64,000 nucleotides of DNA from Gemmatimonadaceae bacterium (GCA_019637355.1 JAHBVT010000001.1:1145192-1209191), one strand, 5' to 3'. Shown: positions 4,858-62,472, counted from the first letter of the stretch. Numbers and translations: made by a program. Notes: a model not told the origin generated them from the sequence alone.

Positions 4858-4941
4858 GGGTGGGAGTCGGGAGGGGGGAGGGGGGGGTGGCGGTGGGGAG
4901 ACGGGAGGCGGGAGATGGCTGGGAGAAGGGAGATGCTCGGG
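4858..4941. repeat. GA/CT element, single arm
   Basis: gggagtcgggaggggggagggggggtggcggtggggagacgggaggcgggagatggctgggagaagggagatg. Confidence 0.7.
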
Positions 4942-41216: not shown

Positions 41217-42350
41217 ATGCCTCCGTCGCCGACAAGGGCCGCCCCCGCAGGTCCTGCCGCCCCTGCTGCGCGTGCCGCCCCTCGTGTGCTGATCGTGAAG
41301 TTGGCCGCAATGGGCGACATCGTGATGGCGTCGACGCTGATCGGCGCCGTGCGCGACCGCTGGCCCGACGCCCAAATCACCTGGCTCACCGGCGACCAGT
41401 TCGCGCCGCTCGTGCGCCGTTTCGAGGGCGTAGATGTGGTGCGTAGTGTCGACGCCGAGTCACTCCTCGCCGGCCCCGCCTTCCGCGCCGCCCACCGCGC
41501 CCCTCACGCCGCCCTCAAGCGCGCCGCCGCCATCGCCAGCACCGTCCGCGCCATCGGCCGCCGCCCCTGGGACCTCGCCCTCGTCGCCCACAGCGATGAG
41601 CGCTACGCGCAACTCCTCCGCTTCGCGAAGGTGCGGGACTTGAGGCAGTTCAAAGAGCCGAGGAAGGACCGCTATATGGGCCTGGAGTACTCCTCGATGT
41701 TGGAAGATGCTGGACCTTCATCTCCCCTCTCCCCCGTCCTCTCCCCTCTCCCATCTCCCCGCCATAACCCACCTCTCCACCTCCCATCTCTCACTCAGCT
41801 CAACAAGCAACAACCTGCCCGCCGAGTCACTCTCGCCCCCGGCGGCGCCCGCAACCTCCTCCGCGACAACCCCCTGCGTCGCTGGCCCGTCGAGAGCTGG
41901 GCTGCGCTCGCGCGCGAGCTCAAGGCGGCCAACTGCGAGCTCACGATCATCGGCGCCGCGAGCGATCGCGCCGAGGCTGATGTGGTGCTCGCCGCCGTCC
42001 CCGACGCGCGTGACGAAGTCGGCAAGCAGGACCTCGACGCACTCCTCGCCGAGCTCGCCAGCAGCGATGTGCTCGTGACCCACGACTCCGGCCCGATGCA
42101 CCTCGCGCAGCTCACGCGCACGCCGGTCGTGGCGCTCTTCGGCCCGACGAGCCCGACGCAGTTCGTGGCGCCGGGGGCGGACGTGACGGTGCTCAGCGCG
42201 GCGCAGCATCTCCCCTGTGCGCCCTGTTATGACGGGAAGGATTACGCGGTGTGCTCGGCGAATCTCTGTCTTAGCCGCGTTGGTCCGGAGATGGCCGCAG
42301 GCACTGTCCTGGCGGTACTGGCTGGGAGGCGGGAGAAGGGAGGCGGGTGA
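41217..42350 (+). CDS. Glycosyltransferase family 9 (heptosyltransferase-like) with an in-frame repeat insertion
   Basis: Motifs VLIVKLAAMGDIV, RRWPVESW, VTHDSGPMHLA, VALFGPT. Confidence 0.9.
   Translation: MPPSPTRAAPAGPAAPAARAAPRVLIVKLAAMGDIVMASTLIGAVRDRWPDAQITWLTGDQFAPLVRRFEGVDVVRSVDAESLLAGPAFRAAHRAPHAALKRAAAIASTVRAIGRRPWDLALVAHSDERYAQLLRFAKVRDLRQFKEPRKDRYMGLEYSSMLEDAGPSSPLSPVLSPLPSPRHNPPLHLPSLTQLNKQQPARRVTLAPGGARNLLRDNPLRRWPVESWAALARELKAANCELTIIGAASDRAEADVVLAAVPDARDEVGKQDLDALLAELASSDVLVTHDSGPMHLAQLTRTPVVALFGPTSPTQFVAPGADVTVLSAAQHLPCAPCYDGKDYAVCSANLCLSRVGPEMAAGTVLAVLAGRREKGGG
41718..41795. repeat. GA/CT element, pyrimidine arm inserted in-frame in the GT9 gene
   Basis: tcatctcccctctcccccgtcctctcccctctcccatctccccgccataacccacctctccacctcccatctctc matches the right arms of the intergenic copies. 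Confidence 0.8.
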
Positions 42351-42515
42351 GGGCGGGGAGAGGGGGAGATGGTTGAGAGAGGGAAGAGGGTTTGGGAGAT
42401 GGGTTTGGGAGACGGATGGGGAGGCGGCCATCTCTCGTCTCTCCGCCGTCTTCCGTGAGCCGCCTCCCCGCCGTCACCCACCTCCCGTCTCCCCCCTCCC
42501 ACTCGCCCCAAGCAC
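42322..42515. repeat. GA/CT long palindromic element
   Basis: Purine arm gggaggcgggagaagggaggcgggtgagggcggggagaggggagatggtt...; pyrimidine arm ...ccccgccgtcacccacctcccgtctccc. Confidence 0.85.
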
Positions 42516-43502: not shown

Positions 43503-43575
43503 GGGCCCATAGCTCAGCGGTTAGAGCGGCGGACTCATAATCCGAAGTGCGCAGGTTCGAATCCTGCTGGGCCCA
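43503..43575 (+). tRNA. tRNA with CAT anticodon, most likely tRNA-Ile2 (lysidine type)
   Basis: GGGCCCATAGCTCAGCGGTTAGAGCGGCGGACTCATAATCCGAAGTGCGCAGGTTCGAATCCTGCTGGGCCCA; the GACTCATAATC anticodon arm resembles Ile2 tRNAs. Confidence 0.88.
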
Positions 43576-43581
43576 TCTAGA

Positions 43582-43815
43582 CGGACGGGGAGAAGGGAGG
43601 GGGAGAGGGGGGTGAAGGCAGGGAGAGGGGAGAAGGGAAGGGGCTGGGAGAGGGCACAGGGTCGCCCCCATCTCCCCGTCCTCTCCCGACCATCTCCCCT
43701 CTCCCGACCATCTCCCCTCTCCCGACCATCTCCCCGCTCCCGACCATCTCCCCTCTCTCAACCATCTCCCCCCGCCCACCTCCCCGCCGTCACCCTCCTC
43801 CCCCCTCCCGTGTCC
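43582..43815. repeat. GA/CT long palindromic element with five tandem 18-mers (CTCTCCCGACCATCTCCC) in the right arm
   Basis: Immediately 3' of the tRNA; the 18-bp periodicity is visible at 43681-43770. Confidence 0.88.
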
Positions 43816-43918
43816 CGATTCCGGTTCGTGACCTAGCTCTCTTGACACCATTAGAGCCACCAACGAACTTCTGCCAGTTACCCGCCCAAGCCCCTTCGCT
43901 CCCTCTTCGGAGATTTCG

Positions 43919-46320: not shown

Positions 46321-46328
46321 TCGTCTGG

Positions 46329-46437
46329 TGGGAGAGGGGAGGTGGAGAGGGGGGTGAGGGCGGGGAGATGTGAGAGGGGAGAGGGCGGGGAGAGGTGAAA
46401 GGAATTCTTCGTTCCTGCCGTCTCCCGTCATCTCTCA
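46329..46437. repeat. GA/CT element, purine arm with a short pyrimidine remnant
   Basis: gggagaggggaggtggagaggggggtgagggcggggagatgtgagaggggagaggg...ccgtctcccgtcatctctc. Confidence 0.75.
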
Positions 46438-46504
46438 AGCTGCAGCGAGTTCATTCTCGTGCTGTGTCATTGCCTACCATCAACGCCTAACTGCGGTGCT
46501 GGTG

Positions 46505-47979: not shown

Positions 47980-48906
47980 ATGCACGCCCAGCCTTCCAGG
48001 CAACTCGTCGTTGCCGTCCTTGCACTCGCGGTGCTCGGGATCTCCATCTCCGGCCCGCTCGCGCGGCTCGCCGACGCGCCACCGCTCGCGATCGCCGTGT
48101 GGCGCCTCGCGCTCTCGCTCTGCATCGTCGCCGTGCCGTTGCTCGGCACCGGCCGTTGGCGCGAGTGGCGCGGGCTCGCCGGGCGCGACCTCGCCATCGC
48201 GATGGGCGCCGGGGCCTTCCTCGCGCTGCACTTCTGGAGCTGGATCGCCTCGCTCGGCCTCACCAGCGTCGCCGCCAGCGTGCTGCTCGTGAACCTGCAT
48301 CCTGTCGTCATCGTGATCGGCTCGGCGCTGTGGCTGCGCGAGCATCCGACGCGCACGCAGCTGATCGGCATCGGCATCGCCGTCGTCGGCGCCGCATACG
48401 TCGCACTCGGCGGCGCGGCGAGTGATGTGGCGCTCGGCGACGCGACGCTCGCCCGCGCCACTCTCGGCAACGGCCTCGCCCTGCTCGGCGCCGTCACCGT
48501 CGGTCTCTACTACCTCGCCGGCCGCAGTCTCCGCCAACGCCTCTCGCTGTGGCCGTACGTCGGACTCGTGTACGGCTGCTGCCTCGTCGTGCTGCTCCTG
48601 CTCGCCGCGTTCACCCGCACGGCGCTCTGGCCCTTCGCGCCGCGCGAACTCACGCTCTTCGCGCTCATTGCCTTCGGCCCGATGCTCGCCGGCCACACCG
48701 GATTCAACTGGGCGCTGCGGTATGTGCCGGCGTATGTGGTGAGTCTGTGTCTGCTGGCGGAGCCGGTGGGGGCGGGGCTGATTGCGGCGGTGATGCCGGG
48801 GGTGCGGGAGGTGCCGGCGGGGTCCGTCGTGGTGGGAGGGGTTGTGGTGCTCTTGGGGGTTGGGGTCGGGTTGTACGCTGGGAAACGGGAGGCGGGAGGG
48901 GGGTGA
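47980..48906 (+). CDS. DMT/EamA-family transporter
   Basis: Ten TM segments; motifs FLALHFWSWIASL, SVAASVLLVNLHP, GHTGFNWAL, EPVGA. Confidence 0.92.
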   Translation: MHAQPSRQLVVAVLALAVLGISISGPLARLADAPPLAIAVWRLALSLCIVAVPLLGTGRWREWRGLAGRDLAIAMGAGAFLALHFWSWIASLGLTSVAASVLLVNLHPVVIVIGSALWLREHPTRTQLIGIGIAVVGAAYVALGGAASDVALGDATLARATLGNGLALLGAVTVGLYYLAGRSLRQRLSLWPYVGLVYGCCLVVLLLLAAFTRTALWPFAPRELTLFALIAFGPMLAGHTGFNWALRYVPAYVVSLCLLAEPVGAGLIAAVMPGVREVPAGSVVVGGVVVLLGVGVGLYAGKREAGGG

Positions 48907-49050
48907 CGGCAGGGAGATGGGAGACGAGAGAGGGCCGGGTCAGGGGAGAGGGTCGGGAGAAGGGCTCCTCTCCCGACCTTCTGCCATCTCTCAGCCATCT
49001 CCCCTGTCCCACCTCCCCGCCATCACCCACCTCACCGTCTCCCCTCTACC
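48882..49050. repeat. GA/CT long palindromic element
   Basis: Purine arm gggaggcgggaggggggtgacggcagggagatgggagac...; pyrimidine arm ...ccatctcccctgtcccacctccccgccatcacccacctc. Confidence 0.85.
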
Positions 49051-49062
49051 TTTATCGGACCA

Positions 49063-51658: not shown

Positions 51659-52275
51659 GCGACGCACTCACGCCCGAGGTCGCCGCCTTGGTGCGCCTCT
51701 CCGCGCGAATCGCGATCGGCAGCGAGTTCGAGATCCGCGCCGGCTGCGCCGAGGTCGTCGCCGCCGAGGTGCCGACGCCGTGGGTGGAGGAGTGCATCCT
51801 CCAGAGCTACCTGATGGCCGGCTTCCCGCGCACGCTCAACGCGATGCGCGAGTGGCGCCGCGTCAGCGGCGTCGAGGCCCCGGAGCCTGAAGAGATTCCC
51901 GAGCCGAGCCTGTGGCGCTGGCGTCAGCAGGGAGAACAGACCTGCGAGATCGTCTACGGCAAGTTCTACACGAAGCTCCGCGAGAACATCGCGCATCTGC
52001 ATCCCGCACTCGACGAGTGGATGATCGTCGAAGGCTACGGCAAGATCCTCTCGCGCCCGGGCTTAGAGCTCAAGCTACGCGAGCTCTGCATCGTCGCCGC
52101 CTGCGCCGCGATGGGGCAGGACCGGCAACTGCACTCGCATCTGCACGGCGCGGTGAACGCGGGGGCGACAGGCGCGGAGGTCGCGGGGACGCTCGCGGCG
52201 ATTGAGGGGCTGGTCGAGGAGGCGCATCTGTTGCGCGCTCGACTGCTGTGGGCGCGGGTTCACGGAAAGGCTTGA
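51655..52275 (+). CDS. Carboxymuconolactone decarboxylase (AhpD-like) family protein
   Basis: Motifs YGKILSRPGL, RELCIVAACA, QLHSHLHGAVNAGAT. Confidence 0.88.
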   Translation: MSDALTPEVAALVRLSARIAIGSEFEIRAGCAEVVAAEVPTPWVEECILQSYLMAGFPRTLNAMREWRRVSGVEAPEPEEIPEPSLWRWRQQGEQTCEIVYGKFYTKLRENIAHLHPALDEWMIVEGYGKILSRPGLELKLRELCIVAACAAMGQDRQLHSHLHGAVNAGATGAEVAGTLAAIEGLVEEAHLLRARLLWARVHGKA

Positions 52276-52278
52276 ACG

Positions 52279-52470
52279 GGCGGGGAGGAGGGAGGGGGAG
52301 AGGAGGGAGAGGGCGGGGAGAGGGGAGAAGGACGATGGCTGAGAGACGGCAGAAGGTCGGGAGATGGGCGCCCTCTCCCAACCATCCGCCCTCTCCCAAC
52401 CATCTCCCCTCTCCCAACCATCTCCCCTCTCCCGTCCACCCGCCGTCACCCACCTCCCATCTCCCAGCTC
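52279..52470. repeat. GA/CT long palindromic element
   Basis: Right arm has tandem CTCTCCCAACCATCTCCC units and ccgccgtcacccacctccc. Confidence 0.85.
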
Positions 52471-52533
52471 CCAGCCGTCGAGCGCAACGAATCGATGCTG
52501 CCGCCGCCGTGAACCCGCTAGATTTCCCAGCCA

Positions 52534-55971: not shown

Positions 55972-57018
55972 ATGGCCAACGCCGAGCTCTCCGATCGCGA
56001 ACGCCAGGTCCTCGAGGCCGTGATTCGCTCCTACGTGGAGACCGCCGAGCCGGCGGGCTCCCGTACGATCAGTCGGCGCTTCGGGCTGGGCGTGTCTCCG
56101 GCCACCATCCGCAATACGATGGCTGACCTGGAGGAGAAAGGCTTCCTCTTCCACCCGCACACCTCGGCGGGCCGCATCCCGACGGACAAGGCCTATCGCT
56201 TCTATGTAGATGGGCTGATGCACCTGGACCGCCCGCTGCCGCTGCAGGAGCGTGAGCGCCTGGCGGAGGAGATCGGCGAGCGGGGCTCGGCGATTGAGAC
56301 GATCCTCAGGCGCGCGGCCCAATCCCTGGGCGTGCTTACACAGGAACTCGGCGTCGCCCTCGGCCCGCGCCTCGACCAGACGGTGCTCACGAAGCTCGAG
56401 TTGGTGCGGATGAGCACGGAGCGCTTGATCTTGGTGCTGACGCTGCGGGGCGGGGCGGTGCGCACGATCTTCATCGAGATCGCCGGTGAGATCGCGGACA
56501 ACGCCATCGCCGAAGTGCAGCAGGTGCTCAACGAACGCCTCGCGGGCCACTCGCTCGCCGAGATCCGCGCCAGCCTCGCCGCGCGCTTGCGTGACGTCGT
56601 GGCGCCGGGCGGCGCGACGGAGTTGCTGAACATCTTCGTGCAGGAGGGCGAACAGCTCTTCGACGTCGCCGCGGCGGCGGACGAGGAGAGCGTGCTGCTC
56701 GGCCAGGCCTCAGTGCTCGCGGAGAAGCCGGAGTTCGCGAGTGGCGATCGGCTGCGGCAGCTGATCGCGCTCACGGAGACGCGCACGCAACTGGCGGGGC
56801 TGCTCCGCCAGCGCGCGGCGCAGCCGGGCGTGTCGATCACGATCGGTGACGAGCACGGCGTGGGGTTGCTCGGGGGACTCACGCTGGTGACGGCGGAGTA
56901 CCGGGCGGGGTCGCTGACGGGGGTGATTGGGGTGATTGGGCCGACGCGGATGCCTTATGAGAAGGTTATTGCTTTGGTGTCCCATACGTCTTCGTTGGTT
57001 ACGGATTTGCTTGCTTAG
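55972..57018 (+). CDS. hrcA: Heat-inducible transcription repressor HrcA
   Basis: Motifs SPATIRNTMADLEEKG, HPHTSAGRIPTDKAYRFYVD, IGVIGPTRMPY. Confidence 0.97.
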   Translation: MANAELSDRERQVLEAVIRSYVETAEPAGSRTISRRFGLGVSPATIRNTMADLEEKGFLFHPHTSAGRIPTDKAYRFYVDGLMHLDRPLPLQERERLAEEIGERGSAIETILRRAAQSLGVLTQELGVALGPRLDQTVLTKLELVRMSTERLILVLTLRGGAVRTIFIEIAGEIADNAIAEVQQVLNERLAGHSLAEIRASLAARLRDVVAPGGATELLNIFVQEGEQLFDVAAAADEESVLLGQASVLAEKPEFASGDRLRQLIALTETRTQLAGLLRQRAAQPGVSITIGDEHGVGLLGGLTLVTAEYRAGSLTGVIGVIGPTRMPYEKVIALVSHTSSLVTDLLA

Positions 57019-57126
57019 ATGGTGGGGGAGGGGAGATGGGAGGGGGGTGACGGCGGGGAGAGGGGAAAGGGGAGAGGGTTGGGAGAGGGGAGAGGGTTGG
57101 GAGAGGGGAGAGGGTTGGGAGAGGGT
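57019..57126. repeat. GA/CT element left (purine) arm flanking the four-helix-bundle gene
   Basis: gggagatgggaggggggtgacggcggggagagggg followed by three GGGAGAGGGTTGGGAGAG-type 18-mers. Confidence 0.88.
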
Positions 57127-57129
57127 TTC

Positions 57130-57585
57130 TTATATCCGCTTGAAGTCGCGGTTGGTGGTGCGGCGTTGGCTTTCGATCAAGCGCAGGAGCATTGCGCGCA
57201 CCTTCGACAGAAGGGATTGGCGGTGGGTGTGGTGCGCTTCGGGGATTACGTCGGCGGCGGCGATGTACCAGGTGATGGCCTCGCGGGCTGAGCCGAGGGC
57301 GTAGCTGAAGAATCGAATGCGATCGGCGCTGCCGGCGCGGCTGTAGCCCTCGGCGAGGTTGGCGCTCACGGAGCCGACGGCGCGCTCAAGTTGGTCGGCG
57401 ATGCCGCCGCGATATCGCGCGCGCAGGGCGCGTGCGTCCTCCTTCGCGCAGTGGAGGATGAAGAGCGCGGCACGGTACACGTGCAGCTTCCATAGGAGAT
57501 CCTGCCGCAAGGCCTCGGGGCAGGCGAGCTCCCACGCTTCCTGCGAGGGTGGCAGGTCGGTGTGGAACGAGGATTGCTTAGGCAT
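57130..57585 (-). CDS. Four helix bundle protein (23S rRNA IVP / bAvd-like superfamily)
   Basis: DQLERAVGSVSANLAEGYSR...RFFSYALGSARE motif. Confidence 0.9.
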   Translation of the reverse strand: MPKQSSFHTDLPPSQEAWELACPEALRQDLLWKLHVYRAALFILHCAKEDARALRARYRGGIADQLERAVGSVSANLAEGYSRAGSADRIRFFSYALGSAREAITWYIAAADVIPEAHHTHRQSLLSKVRAMLLRLIESQRRTTNRDFKRI

Positions 57586-57595
57586 AGCCGAGCAT

Positions 57596-57740
57596 ATCCC
57601 CTCTCCCCTCTCCCTGAATCATCTCCCCATCTCCCCCCTCACCACCATCTCCCCTCTCCCCAAATCATCTCCCCTCTCCCAACCATCTCCCCTCTCACAT
57701 CTCCCCGCCGCCACCCACCTCCCCACCTCCCGTCTCCCAC
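57596..57740. repeat. GA/CT element right (pyrimidine) arm flanking the four-helix-bundle gene
   Basis: Tandem CCATCTCCCCTCTCCC units ending catctccccgccgccacccacctccccacctcccgtctccc. Confidence 0.88.
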
Positions 57741-57755
57741 TAGTTTTACGCTCAA

Positions 57756-58889
57756 ATGGCCGATTACTACGCAACCCTCGGACTCCCCAAATCCGCCTCC
57801 GACGACGACATCAAGTCCGCGTATCGGAAACTGGCGACCAAGTTCCATCCCGACCGCAACGGGGGCTCCAAGGAAGCCGAGGAGCAGTTCAAGGCGATCA
57901 CCGAGGCCTACGACGTCCTGCGCGATCCGCAGAAGCGCGCGGCCTATGATCGCTACGGCGAGGCGGGCCTGCGAGGCGGGATGGGCGGCGCGGGGGGCTT
58001 CCACCACGTCGATCTGTCCGAAGCGCTGAACATCTTTATGCGCGACTTCGGGCTCGGCGACATCTTCGGCGGCGGGCAGGGTGGCCGGCAGTCGTCGGGG
58101 CCGCGCGCCGGCGCCGACGTGAAGGTGGATATGCAGCTGACGATACTCGAGGTGGCGACGGGCGTCACGAAGACGATCAAGCTGAAGCTGCTGGACCCCT
58201 GCACGCGCTGCACGGGCTCGGGCGCGGAGCCGGGGACGTCACCGTCGCGCTGCACGACCTGCAATGGCCAAGGCGAAGTGCGCCGCGCGCAGCAGAGCTT
58301 CTTCGGGCAGTTCGTGTCGGTGGCGCCGTGCCCCACCTGCCGCGGCGAGGGAGTGATGATCGCCTCGCCCTGCAAGGAGTGCCGCGGCGAAGGTCGCGAG
58401 CGCGGCGAGCACACGATCGACCTCAAGGTCCCAGCCGGTGTGGCGACGGGCCAGTATATGCACCTGCGCGGCGTCGGTAACGCCGGCGTGCGTGGCGGTC
58501 CGCGCGGGGATGTCATCGTGGTGTTCGAAGTGCTCGAGGACGATCGCTTCGAGCGCGACGGCGAGGACCTCTACTGCGAAGTCTTGGTCACGTACCCGCA
58601 GGCCGTCCTTGGCGCCGACCTCGACGTGCCCGGCGTGACCGGTCCGCTCACGCTGCGGATGCCCGAAGGCACGCAGAGCGGCGAAGTCTTCGTGCTCCGC
58701 GGCCGCGGCCTCCCGCGCGTGAACGCCAGCGGCGCCGGCGACCTGCACGTGCGCGTGCAGGTGTGGACGCCGGCGAAGCTCTCGAAGGAGGAGACGAAGC
58801 TGATCGAGCAGCTGCACGAGGTGCAGGCGCGACCGCCGGAGAAGCGCGAGAAAGGCTTTTGGGCGAAGATGAAGGAAGCCTTAGGGTGA
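57756..58889 (+). CDS. dnaJ: Chaperone DnaJ
   Basis: HPD motif and four CxxCxGxG zinc repeats. Confidence 0.98.
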   Translation: MADYYATLGLPKSASDDDIKSAYRKLATKFHPDRNGGSKEAEEQFKAITEAYDVLRDPQKRAAYDRYGEAGLRGGMGGAGGFHHVDLSEALNIFMRDFGLGDIFGGGQGGRQSSGPRAGADVKVDMQLTILEVATGVTKTIKLKLLDPCTRCTGSGAEPGTSPSRCTTCNGQGEVRRAQQSFFGQFVSVAPCPTCRGEGVMIASPCKECRGEGRERGEHTIDLKVPAGVATGQYMHLRGVGNAGVRGGPRGDVIVVFEVLEDDRFERDGEDLYCEVLVTYPQAVLGADLDVPGVTGPLTLRMPEGTQSGEVFVLRGRGLPRVNASGAGDLHVRVQVWTPAKLSKEETKLIEQLHEVQARPPEKREKGFWAKMKEALG

Positions 58890-58896
58890 TGCTGCG

Positions 58897-59105
58897 AGAC
58901 GGGAGGCGGGAGGTGGGTTAGGACGGGGAGATGGCAGGAGAGACACGACGGGAGAGACGGAACACGGCTCCATCTCTCCACCCTCTCCCAACCCTCTCCC
59001 CTCTCCCAACCATCTCCCCTCTCTCAACCATCTCCCCTCTCTCAACCATCGTCCTTCTCCCCATCTCCCTCCCGTCACCCTCCTCTCCACCTCCCACCTC
59101 CCAGC
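58897..59105. repeat. GA/CT long palindromic element
   Basis: Purine arm gagacgggaggcgggaggtgggttaggacggggagatgg; tandem 18-mers ctctcccaaccatctccc; ccgtcaccc. Confidence 0.85.
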
Positions 59106-61150: not shown

Positions 61151-62271
61151 GGGTCGCGCTCGTCCACGAGTGGCTCCTCACGCACGGCGGCTCGGAGGAG
61201 ATCACCGGCCAGCTCTGCCAGCTGTTCCCGGACGCGGACCTCTACACGCTGATTGCCGACCCTGTCCCGTCGCTGCGCGCCCTGATCGGCAATCGCCGCA
61301 TCCGCACCTCCTGGCTGCAGCGCATTCCCGGCGCCACGCGCCATCATCGTCGCCTCCTGCCGTTGATGCCGCGGGCGATCGAGTCGTTCGACTTCAGCGA
61401 CTACGACCTCGTCATCAGCGTCAGCCACGCCGTGGCGAAGGGCGCACGCACGTCGGGGAGGACCGAGCACCTGAACATCTGTTGTTCGCCGATCCGCTAC
61501 GCTTGGGATCTCGAGGAGCAGTATCTCGAAGAGGCCGGACTCTCGCGCGGCCTCAAGGGCGTCGCCGCCCGCGCGCTGCTCGCGCGCATCCGCGCCTGGG
61601 ACCGTCGCAGCGCTGACCGTCCGACGCGCGTGCTGGCAATCTCGCGCTTCATCGCCGAGCGGGTGCATCGCGTGTGGGGCCGCGACAGCGAGGTGCTGTA
61701 TCCGCCGGTGGAGACGGAGTACTTCGGTCAGCCCACCGGCGTGGCACGCGAGCACGACCTCTACGTGACGGCCTCGCGCTTCGTCCCCTACAAGCGCATC
61801 CCGCTGATCGTCGAAGCCTTCGCCCAGATGCCGACGCGGCGCCTCGTCGTCATCGGCGACGGCCCCGAGATGCCCAAGGCCCGCGCCGCCGCGACACCGA
61901 ACGTGACGTTCCAGGGCCGCGTCCCGCGCGCCGAGCTGCGCGAGTGGCTGCAGCGTGCCCGCGGCTTCGTCTTCGCCGCCGAGGAGGATTTCGGCATCGC
62001 CCCGGTCGAGGCGATGGCCGCCGGCACCCCGGTGGTCGCGTACGGCCGCGGCGGCGCCCGCGAGACCGTGGTCGGAGAGGGAGAAGCCCGGACGGGCGTG
62101 TTCTTTGAGGCCCAGTCCGTTGAGGCGATCGTGGACGCGGTGCGGCGGCTTGAGGAGGCTGGCGTGCGCTCGACTGACTGCGTGGCGCGGGCGGAGCTGT
62201 TTTCGGTGGCTGAGTTTAGGCGGAGAGTGGTTGGCCTCACGAGTGGGAGAGGGGAGGCGGTAGGGGGGTGA
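61147..62271 (+). CDS. Glycosyltransferase family 4
   Basis: Motifs VALVHEWL..HGGSE, SRFVPYKR, EEDFGIAPVEAMAAG. Confidence 0.92.
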   Translation: MRVALVHEWLLTHGGSEEITGQLCQLFPDADLYTLIADPVPSLRALIGNRRIRTSWLQRIPGATRHHRRLLPLMPRAIESFDFSDYDLVISVSHAVAKGARTSGRTEHLNICCSPIRYAWDLEEQYLEEAGLSRGLKGVAARALLARIRAWDRRSADRPTRVLAISRFIAERVHRVWGRDSEVLYPPVETEYFGQPTGVAREHDLYVTASRFVPYKRIPLIVEAFAQMPTRRLVVIGDGPEMPKARAAATPNVTFQGRVPRAELREWLQRARGFVFAAEEDFGIAPVEAMAAGTPVVAYGRGGARETVVGEGEARTGVFFEAQSVEAIVDAVRRLEEAGVRSTDCVARAELFSVAEFRRRVVGLTSGRGEAVGG

Positions 62272-62472
62272 GGGCGGGGAGGCAGGCGGGGGCAGAGGGC
62301 TGAGAGACGGGACACGGCGGGAGAAGGCCCCCTCTCCCAGACCATCGCCCGTCTCCCAACCCTCTCCCGTCTCCCAACCCTCTCCCGTCTCCCAACCCTC
62401 TCCCGTCTCCCAACCCTCTTCCGTCTCCCATCTCCCCGCCGTCACCCCCCTCCCCCTCTCCCCCCTCCCAGC
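62245..62472. repeat. GA/CT long palindromic element with four tandem 18-mers (CCGTCTCCCAACCCTCTC)
   Basis: Purine arm overlaps the GT4 stop; right arm ends ccccgccgtcacccccctccccctctccc. Confidence 0.88.

Follow-up and report, generated by a model that had tools for sequence, protein, structure and literature searches.

To our knowledge, PF05635 is a large protein family that is spread over many phyla and has solved structures, and we know of no function for it; the published context of the family that we are aware of is centred on ORF-bearing intervening sequences (IVSs) of 23S rRNA. Among the long simple repeats of bacteria, heptanucleotide arrays are the most frequent kind, and we know of no explanation for them. 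In Coxiella, a PF05635-family gene lies within a 28-bp stem with tandem GACAGAT heptamers, and RNase III cleaves this stem to excise the IVS from the 23S rRNA (PMC4990558). Genes of the same family that are wedged within operons have been noticed in cas loci (PMC3936711). Gene-less G-rich heptamer arrays have been reported from Xanthomonas (GGGAATC) and Nostoc (GGGGAYT) (PMC4692102) and from Geobacter metallireducens (PMC2700814). A text search of PMC4692102 and PMC2700814 returned no mention of a protein partner of such arrays, and a full-text search of the literature found no report that links PF05635 genes outside rRNA with flanking heptamer arrays.

The closest published relative of the locus described here, a four-helix-bundle (4HB) gene enclosed by long complementary arms between hrcA and dnaJ, is the ORF-bearing 23S rRNA IVS of Coxiella (S23p) and Leptospira (PMC4990558). 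In both cases, a PF05635 ORF fills the loop of a stem that is formed by terminal inverted repeats, and heptamers lie by the start codon (GACAGAT in Coxiella, GGGAGAG-type units here, GACGGAT elsewhere in the same genome). In contrast to the IVS, our cassette lies antisense between protein-coding genes and outside any rRNA helix, its stem spans about 100 bp instead of 28 bp, its arms belong to a dispersed family with about 54 loci, and RNase III, the enzyme that excises the IVS, is undetected in its lineage.

Four further systems invite comparison. With REP/REPIN-RAYT systems the locus shares dispersed, genome-specific palindromic repeats, a vertically inherited gene that is flanked by inverted copies of a dispersed repeat, and the pairing of different paralogues with different repeat families; it differs in that the cassette gene encodes a small four-helix bundle without a nuclease motif rather than a Y1/HUH transposase, that the repeats are heptamer arrays, and that one large repeat family has no gene. 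Avd, the nucleic-acid-binding pentamer that partners a polymerase in diversity-generating retroelements (DGRs), has a similar fold (PDB 4DWL, 8UB7), yet its sequence identity to our protein is 10-11% and the genome has no reverse transcriptase. The gene-less arrays of Xanthomonas, Nostoc and Geobacter resemble the repeats of our genome in being intergenic heptamers, often in convergent inverted pairs, and lineage-specific, whereas here one such pair encloses a PF05635 gene and has its termini in common with gene-less copies. MITEs and their autonomous parents, finally, likewise combine terminal inverted repeats, many gene-less copies, a rare gene-bearing copy and local clustering; unlike them, our family shows no transposase and no target-site duplication, and its gene-bearing copy has long been fixed at one site.

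A four-helix-bundle cassette between hrcA and dnaJ

We found an IVS-type 4HB cassette at a site outside rRNA; its gene fills the loop of a heptamer-array hairpin of about 100 bp. In the window (the whole stretch of DNA that was analysed, 64 kb long), the host genes hrcA (55972-57018, PF01628) and dnaJ (57756-58889) are both encoded on the plus strand, and the 4HB ORF between them is antisense (57130-57585, minus strand, 151 aa). Its assignment is based on structure prediction and on profile matches to PF05635 (57.1 bits, cut-off 33.8) and TIGR02436 (64 bits, cut-off 24). The G-rich (purine) arm occupies positions 57021-57125; its outer ~38 nt are the terminus of the repeat family, TGGGGGAGGGGAGATGGGAGGGGGGTGACGGCGGGGAGA, and inward of this terminus an 18-mer made of degenerate heptamers, GGGAGAGGGGAGAGGGTT, is present three times. 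The complementary C-rich (pyrimidine) arm at 57597-57740 ends outward in the inverted family terminus, with the core TCTCCCCGCCGCCACCC at 57700-57716. Both arms lie close to the gene: the ATG is about 11 nt from the C-rich arm, and the stop codon is 4 nt from the G-rich arm. As to the host genes, the final ~120 nt of hrcA are C-poor (18% C, 31% T) and the initial ~120 nt of dnaJ are G-poor (23% G, 26% A).

The longest ungapped pairing between the arms extends over 88 nt with 80% complementarity (85% with gaps), and in RNA folding predictions the ORF is enclosed by a ~100-bp stem on either strand (z = -12.2 on the 4HB strand and -8.5 on the operon strand). Coordinates, profiles and arm pairing bear out the initial, sequence-only reading of an antisense coding sequence that lies in hrcA-dnaJ between complementary arms. 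An independent short-read metagenome assembly (ERZ2606016 NODE_21) reproduces the arm and gene structure over 21 kb with all arms, at 99.99% identity (two substitutions, zero indels), and the structure is therefore no assembly artefact. No movement was seen, but this sole other assembly that was found is too similar to speak for or against mobility.

The AlphaFold (AF2) monomer model of the protein, built with 18 relatives, has a mean pLDDT of 88.6 and shows a four-helix bundle with a poorly ordered N-terminal extension of ~30 residues that contains two short helices. The closest solved structure by sequence is XCC0516 (2GSC), and the best Foldseek matches of the model were 2GSC and BT_0352 (2RLD), with a target-normalised TM of 0.85-0.90 and an rmsd of 1.2-1.6 Å. 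Against Avd (4DWL, 8UB7), the target-normalised TM was ~0.82 and the rmsd 1.8-1.9 Å. The IVS/Avd-like fold that had first been named for this gene is supported by these matches, and the resemblance of IVS proteins to Avd is already in print (PMC10053308). In an alignment of homologues, R68, S72, N76 and E79 of the motif RxxxSxxxNxxE, which is conserved in the PF05635 family (PMC3936711), are invariant or nearly so; a catalytic motif is absent from the protein. A promoter scan found no sigma-70-like promoter around the cassette, and PADLOC and PHROGs gave no match to defence or phage families. A known RNA family was discarded for the locus, as Rfam gave two tRNAs only within 40-64 kb.

The history of the cassette can be read from the relatives of this bacterium. 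In every outgroup family, as in two further genomes (G001 and G014), hrcA abuts or overlaps dnaJ, and judged from these sequences the abutting arrangement is the ancestral state. Four species of the genus (G000, G004, G012 and G019) carry the 4HB cassette at this junction, antisense throughout. Other contents of the junction within the genus are a kinase, a glycosyltransferase and a YdcF-like gene, and in one genome (G023) it holds G- and C-rich arms without a gene. Among the four species, the 4HB proteins are 48-61% identical, compared with 78-88% for hrcA and dnaJ, and the dS of the 4HB gene (0.87-2.1) is comparable to that of hrcA and dnaJ (0.58-1.5), with a dN/dS of 0.2-0.5. A dS like that of the neighbours, together with this dN/dS, shows that the cassette is old and vertically inherited and that its protein is selected and fast-evolving. 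An early member of the genus thus acquired the cassette between hrcA and dnaJ, and from then on the cassette was inherited vertically, with its protein under purifying selection. The suggestion of a mobile element, which had been made for this locus, is weakened by the presence of the cassette in four species with a dS equal to that of its neighbours, as this leaves no room for a recent insertion. In the hrcA tree, in which the genus is poorly resolved, G019, which carries the cassette, pairs with G008, which has none (support 96/91), so that the cassette was cleanly lost at least once or gained a second time.

The two arms of a cassette are 85-95% identical within a species, whereas corresponding arms of different species are 72-84% identical; the arms therefore evolve in concert or are selected for complementarity. 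Transition mismatches in the arms number 31 versus 37, with a G·U preference on neither RNA strand, and whatever keeps the arms alike thus operates on the DNA or on both strands. This lack of G·U bias fits an upkeep at the DNA level, for example by quasi-palindrome template switching, no less well than it fits selection on one RNA.

The fam1 repeat family in the window and the genome

The arms of the cassette are part of a repeat family, which we call fam1. When the window was searched for the repeat unit GGGAGAGGGGAGAGGG with up to 2 mismatches, 48 occurrences were found against 0.09 expected. The sequence-only reading had counted about 10 other loci with empty arms, and the repeat is indeed present at ten loci besides the cassette, as seven full palindromes and three partial ones. 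The gene-less palindromes lie at 2075-2227, 42324-42504, 43579-43816 (4 nt past a tRNA gene at 43503-43575), 48880-49051, 52274-52472, 58895-59102 (between dnaJ and prmA, with a diverged G arm) and 62244-62470, the last with a predicted RNA fold of -136.6 kcal/mol (z = -6.4). The partial loci comprise a G-rich arm with the fam1 terminus that is followed by unrelated DNA of lower G+C (4861-4935), a C-rich arm only (41715-41795), and a G-rich arm with a truncated C-rich arm (46327-46440).

In the whole genome (3.15 Mb, 68.7% G+C, 3 contigs), fam1 arms are degenerate heptamer arrays (GGGAGNN)n with two fixed variant units, GGGTGAC GGCGGGG. The 17-nt core of the family has 74 matches, 37 forward and 37 reverse, at 54 loci. 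Both ends were detected in 17 elements. Fifteen of these are gene-less, with cores 92-169 nt apart and a loop of a few bases; one is the 4HB cassette, with a core spacing of 655 nt; and one (C1:2340168-2340683) has its cores 470 nt apart around a terminator-like hairpin and a 72-aa hydrophobic ORF, a membrane ORF without a Pfam match. All 34 ends of the 17 elements, those of the cassette included, read (T)GGGAGRNGGGAGGNGGGAGGNGGGTGACGGCGGGGAGA, a terminus of ~38 nt. The cassette can hence be regarded as a cargo-bearing member among gene-less copies, as had been proposed. With regard to traces of insertion, empty (abutting) hrcA-dnaJ sites do exist in relatives. An inspection by eye of the pairs of ends revealed no target-site duplication at any of the 17 two-ended elements.

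The expansion of fam1 is a burst confined to this species: with 0-10 matches to the core apiece, 40 relatives are at background level, compared with 74 matches here. Assemblies of 10-20 contigs are among these relatives, but most are fragmented and their counts may therefore be too low. The family is also unevenly distributed. Of the 53 other fam1 loci, 13 lie within ±60 kb of the cassette, compared with an expectation of 2.0 (p = 7.5e-8); of all 54 loci, 19 fall between 1.1 and 1.3 Mb. The GACGGAN heptamer family of the same genome, with 180 loci, is evenly spread, and the crowding of fam1 is therefore no regional property of such repeats. No cognate 4HB gene was found for GACGGAN, the most abundant heptamer family. 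The left terminus of the cassette is among the copies nearest to the fam1 consensus (distance 6; 10th percentile = 8). A similarity gradient was absent, as fam1 copies near the cassette are no more like its arms than far ones.

Among the inverted repeats with skewed arms in this genome, the G-rich arm is 5' in 131 and the C-rich arm in 25, and nearly all of these 25 are pairings between adjacent elements. An arrangement with the G-rich arm 5' reads alike on both strands, so that the G-rich arm comes first in any transcript. This polarity might have to do with Rho, for which a C-rich unpaired tract, if transcribed first, would make an ideal loading site during synthesis of the loop. Like terminators and REPs, GACGGAN is depleted in divergent spacers (7.7%, compared with 18% among all spacers); no such depletion was found for fam1.

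Armed 4HB genes in the genome, its relatives and other phyla

The genome holds two PF05635 genes only, and neither of them lies in rRNA (0/2); the hrcA-dnaJ site is outside helices 25 and 45 of 23S rRNA, and the second gene (C1:1842757-1843071) is positioned antisense between a pyrophosphatase-like gene and ychF. The inverted arrays around this second 4HB gene are built from another unit, GAGACGT/GAGACTT, which elsewhere in the genome forms about a dozen gene-less palindromes. A genome-wide survey of inverted repeats with a G-rich left arm yielded three with gene-sized loops, and two of these loops contain the 4HB genes.

Of the 29 4HB loci that could be tested in 40 relatives from the genus and the order, 24 are flanked by inverted repeats with a score of at least 17. 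For comparison, 0.7% of 600 random pseudo-genes in our genome reach 17 and none reach 20. The units of the arms vary among the loci of the relatives and include GGTGTGA, GGGTGTA, TAGGGGC, CAGGTGT, GGCAATA and others. Arrays of GGCAATA, which form the arms of a 4HB gene, are found at about eight loci in one genome (G040) and at none in any other relative, and GGGTGTA-type arrays, which also serve as 4HB arms, are present mainly in G034 and in some order-level relatives and absent from the genus of our bacterium. In these two genomes, too, the arms of a 4HB gene are part of a dispersed, gene-less family that is particular to the genome or lineage. On the question whether other 4HB genes are flanked by arms, the second gene of the genome and most of the sampled relatives are, with arm units that differ.

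A search with a four-sequence alignment extended this picture to homologues from Acidobacteriota, Chloroflexota, Cyanobacteria, Bacteroidota, Planctomycetota, Proteobacteria, Firmicutes and one archaeal bin. Among the best 80 of >600 matches, a non-random sample that is biased to one subfamily, 52 of 77 loci score at least 15; this armed fraction describes that subfamily and is not for extension to the whole of PF05635. Shifted controls, that is, windows moved by 1.1 kb at the same loci, reached 15 in 0 of 133 cases. In the same best 80 of >600 matches, 43 of 51 arms have a period of 7 and seven have a period of 8, and cassettes in co-directional gene pairs are sense in 26 cases and antisense in 7 by a crude, ORF-based count. 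The two antisense cassettes of the genus therefore represent a minority type, which must have a promoter of its own.

Possible relations between the gene and the hairpins

The 4HB gene and the hairpins look like one system, and we hold this with higher confidence than any mechanism that may underlie it. The best explanation for the data as a whole is a selected IVS-type cassette that, together with the fam1 hairpins, constitutes a REPIN/RAYT-like partnership (probability of roughly 0.5). It is suggested by the termini that the cassette has in common with 16 other two-ended elements, by the crowding of fam1 loci, by the closeness of the cassette to the fam1 consensus and by the armed homologues. 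As for the mechanism of such a partnership, we infer, tentatively and at odds well below even, that an Avd-like protein acts on the arrays. We presume that this protein assembles into a pentameric ring that binds nucleic acids. Its targets would be the heptamer arrays in its own arms, recognised either as single-stranded DNA or as a hairpin, and it would promote or protect the copying of these arrays, preferentially in cis or nearby. The chemistry could be provided by host replication and repair through template switching or slippage, which might also keep both arms alike at the DNA level. Whichever strand is transcribed, the RNA would form the hairpin with its G-rich arm on the 5' side. In this lineage, in which RNase III is undetected, the stem is probably not excised as in 23S rRNA; more likely, it is a stable structure that separates the expression of hrcA from that of dnaJ and terminates the antisense message of the 4HB gene.

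Several observations weigh against a partnership: no catalytic motif, transposase, reverse transcriptase, target duplication or movement was seen, GACGGAN lacks a 4HB gene, and the fam1 copies nearby are no more similar to the cassette than distant ones. Neither a Y1 transposase (PF01797) nor a reverse transcriptase (PF00078) was found in the whole genome, which widens the earlier statement that the window contains no transposase or reverse transcriptase. Mobilisation of the RAYT/IS200 type and an accessory role in a DGR were discarded, as the Y1 transposase and the reverse transcriptase, respectively, are absent from the genome. A broader version of the partnership, in which PF05635 proteins would be trans-acting partners of heptamer-array hairpins, nuclease-free and REPIN-like, with paralogue-specific 7-nt units, seems rather doubtful to us. 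In this version, the gene-bearing hairpin would be the resident source, from which gene-less ones would be seeded preferentially nearby, and these details seem to us just as doubtful.

The main rival to the REPIN/RAYT-like partnership is the view that the hairpins are the host's own or independently selfish, of the terminator or REP type, and that 4HB genes, as small selfish ORFs, settle or survive best in the apical loops of hairpins that already exist, as they do in helices 25 and 45 of 23S rRNA. We consider it unlikely that the ORF is such a passenger, and equally unlikely that its protein is without action on the arms. This view would accommodate the largest hairpin family, GACGGAN, which lacks a 4HB gene and lies mainly at gene 3' ends, as well as the fam1 hairpin with an unrelated cargo, the 72-aa membrane ORF. 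In each cassette, moreover, the arms resemble a family that is common in the cassette's own genome, and gene-less heptamer arrays are in print without such a gene (PMC4692102, PMC2700814). The crowding of fam1 around the 4HB gene, however, is left unexplained, as are the purifying selection over a dS of ~1-2 and the fact that two of three loop-borne genes are the genome's only two 4HB genes. An insertion machinery for the 4HB ORF is not known.

Regulation and RNA excision are both less likely than the partnership and the passenger view. A regulatory 4HB protein would bind heptamer arrays sequence-specifically, as RNA or DNA, and tune termination or mRNA stability at many hairpins, with its own arms serving in autoregulation and the dispersed hairpins as its regulon. 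The vertical inheritance of the gene under selection, the different arms of the paralogues, the intergenic position of the hairpins and the mostly sense orientation of cassettes in co-directional pairs across phyla (26 versus 7 in the best 80 of >600 matches) would all suit a regulator. A regulon, however, predicts neither conserved 38-nt termini on every copy nor a species-specific burst, and it predicts neither physical clustering near the 4HB gene nor arms within coding sequence, which makes this role quite improbable.

Excision in the manner of an IVS is more improbable still. A double-strand-specific RNase would cut the stem out of the hrcA-dnaJ transcript or the antisense transcript and free the ORF-bearing loop, and, as in 23S rRNA, this would part the hrcA and dnaJ messages; we regard both steps as very improbable here. 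The gene family, the stem-loop layout and the heptamers by the start codon do match the Coxiella IVS (PMC4990558), and both strands are predicted to form a highly stable stem, but wobble-pair bias is lacking on either RNA strand and RNase III was not detected. In this genome, the models TIGR02191, PF14622 and PF00636 were all without a match, and PF14622 and PF00636 also had none in 20 relatives of the order from six genera; these two models were positive in control genomes. A tblastn search with E. coli RNase III and a search for the ERLEFLGD-type signature likewise detected no RNase III, and the one weak tblastn match is a TldD/PmbA-type protein. Excision is unlikely here because the enzyme is undetected in genome and relatives alike, and the alternative of an IVS-like excision, which had been raised for this locus at the outset, is weakened. 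A coincidence, in which two half-elements independently flanked a pre-existing small gene, is excluded for practical purposes: single arms do exist, but in outgroups hrcA and dnaJ abut and lack both gene and arms, and the same architecture was seen again at 24 of 29 loci in relatives and, among the best 80 of >600 matches, around 52 of 77 distant homologues, compared with 0 of 133 controls.

The locus joins PF05635 and heptamer arrays more directly than a bare flanking association would. What is new here are the termini that the cassette has in common with gene-less copies, the crowding of these copies near the gene, the presence of filled and empty sites within one genus and the finding that RNase III is undetected. 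Two paralogues with different arms, together with related species that have filled and empty sites, provide a natural test bed, and a lineage in which RNase III is undetected allows RNA excision to be separated from other roles. If the 4HB protein acts on its arms, the cassette would represent a new kind of gene-repeat partnership, of which the rRNA IVS would be a special case. If PF05635 proteins are indeed trans-acting partners of such hairpins, this would link the family and the 23S IVS to the excess of heptanucleotide repeats that has long been noticed in bacteria.

Contents of the hrcA-dnaJ junction and of a second cassette site

The junction between hrcA and dnaJ is a hotspot within the genus, as seen at loci L031-L047. 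Its contents among the members of the genus include, besides the cassette with the four-helix-bundle (4HB) gene, a Ser/Thr kinase gene in some species, a glycosyltransferase together with another gene in others, and a YdcF-like gene in others again, while further species carry unrelated spacers of 21-283 nt. In the relative G023, G- and C-rich arms that are not complementary surround a terminator-like hairpin at this site, and in outgroups hrcA and dnaJ overlap. The 4HB orthologue of another relative, G004 (locus L032), holds an inner CCCTCTC-type array near the 4HB start. This array belongs to the open reading frame and precedes its conserved part; if the upstream start codon were used, it would be translated into a Glu/Arg/Gly-rich repeat.

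A second 4HB cassette of the source genome lies outside the window (contig C1:1842569-1843187), where it is flanked by a pyrophosphatase-like gene and ychF and has antisense orientation; its arms are built from GAGACGT/GAGACTT units. A 4HB gene is present at this site in at least nine species of the genus, most of which differ from one another in their arm units.

Repeats in the hairpin arms break short-read assemblies, and element counts in fragmented genome bins are therefore likely too low. The short-read Logan contig SRR12908349_20136 (L143), which carries dnaJ, stops inside hairpin arms at both of its ends.

Other hairpins and arms of the source genome

One member of fam1, the 54-locus hairpin family that shares a terminus of about 38 nt with the cassette of the window, carries a different cargo (C1:2340168-2340683, outside the window). 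With both family termini present, it encloses a very hydrophobic 72-aa open reading frame without a Pfam match and a terminator-like hairpin, and a 4HB gene is absent there. Within the window, one tRNA gene has a fam1 hairpin beginning 4 nt beyond its 3' end (43503-43816, tRNA gene included). The DNA that follows a lone G-rich arm (4861-4935) has a lower G+C content, and a lone C-rich arm is found 36.8 kb downstream of that arm (41715-41795).

Heptamer palindromes of the type (GACGGAT/A/G)n ... (ATCCGTC)n occupy about 180 evenly spread loci in the whole genome, mostly 3' of genes, and no cognate 4HB gene was found for them genome-wide. Their GACGGAT-type unit is one base apart from GACAGAT, the heptamer of the Coxiella 23S rRNA intervening sequence (PMC4990558).

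Base skew in coding sequence beside the hairpins

The last 120 nt of hrcA (56899-57018) contain 18% C and 31% T, compared to 39% C and 12% T further upstream, and the first 120 nt of dnaJ (57756-57875) contain 23% G and 26% A, compared to 39% G and 13% A further into the gene. Across the genome, in the 100 nt nearest a hairpin, the strand that leads up to it shows a GC skew of +0.11 to +0.25, whether the coding flank is sense or antisense; past about 150 nt the skew is gone. This pattern looks like a strand-specific C-to-T change, or like arms encroaching on genes.

RNase III in the order

RNase III was not detected in the source genome by the models TIGR02191, PF14622 and PF00636, by tblastn with an approximate query or by its signature motif, nor in 20 relatives from six genera of the order by profile searches with PF14622 and PF00636; the profile models do match in control genomes. 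If this absence is real, rRNA maturation in the whole order proceeds without the canonical enzyme, and long double-stranded RNA is likewise handled without it; the lack of the enzyme may then explain the tolerance of 100-bp hairpins in transcripts there.
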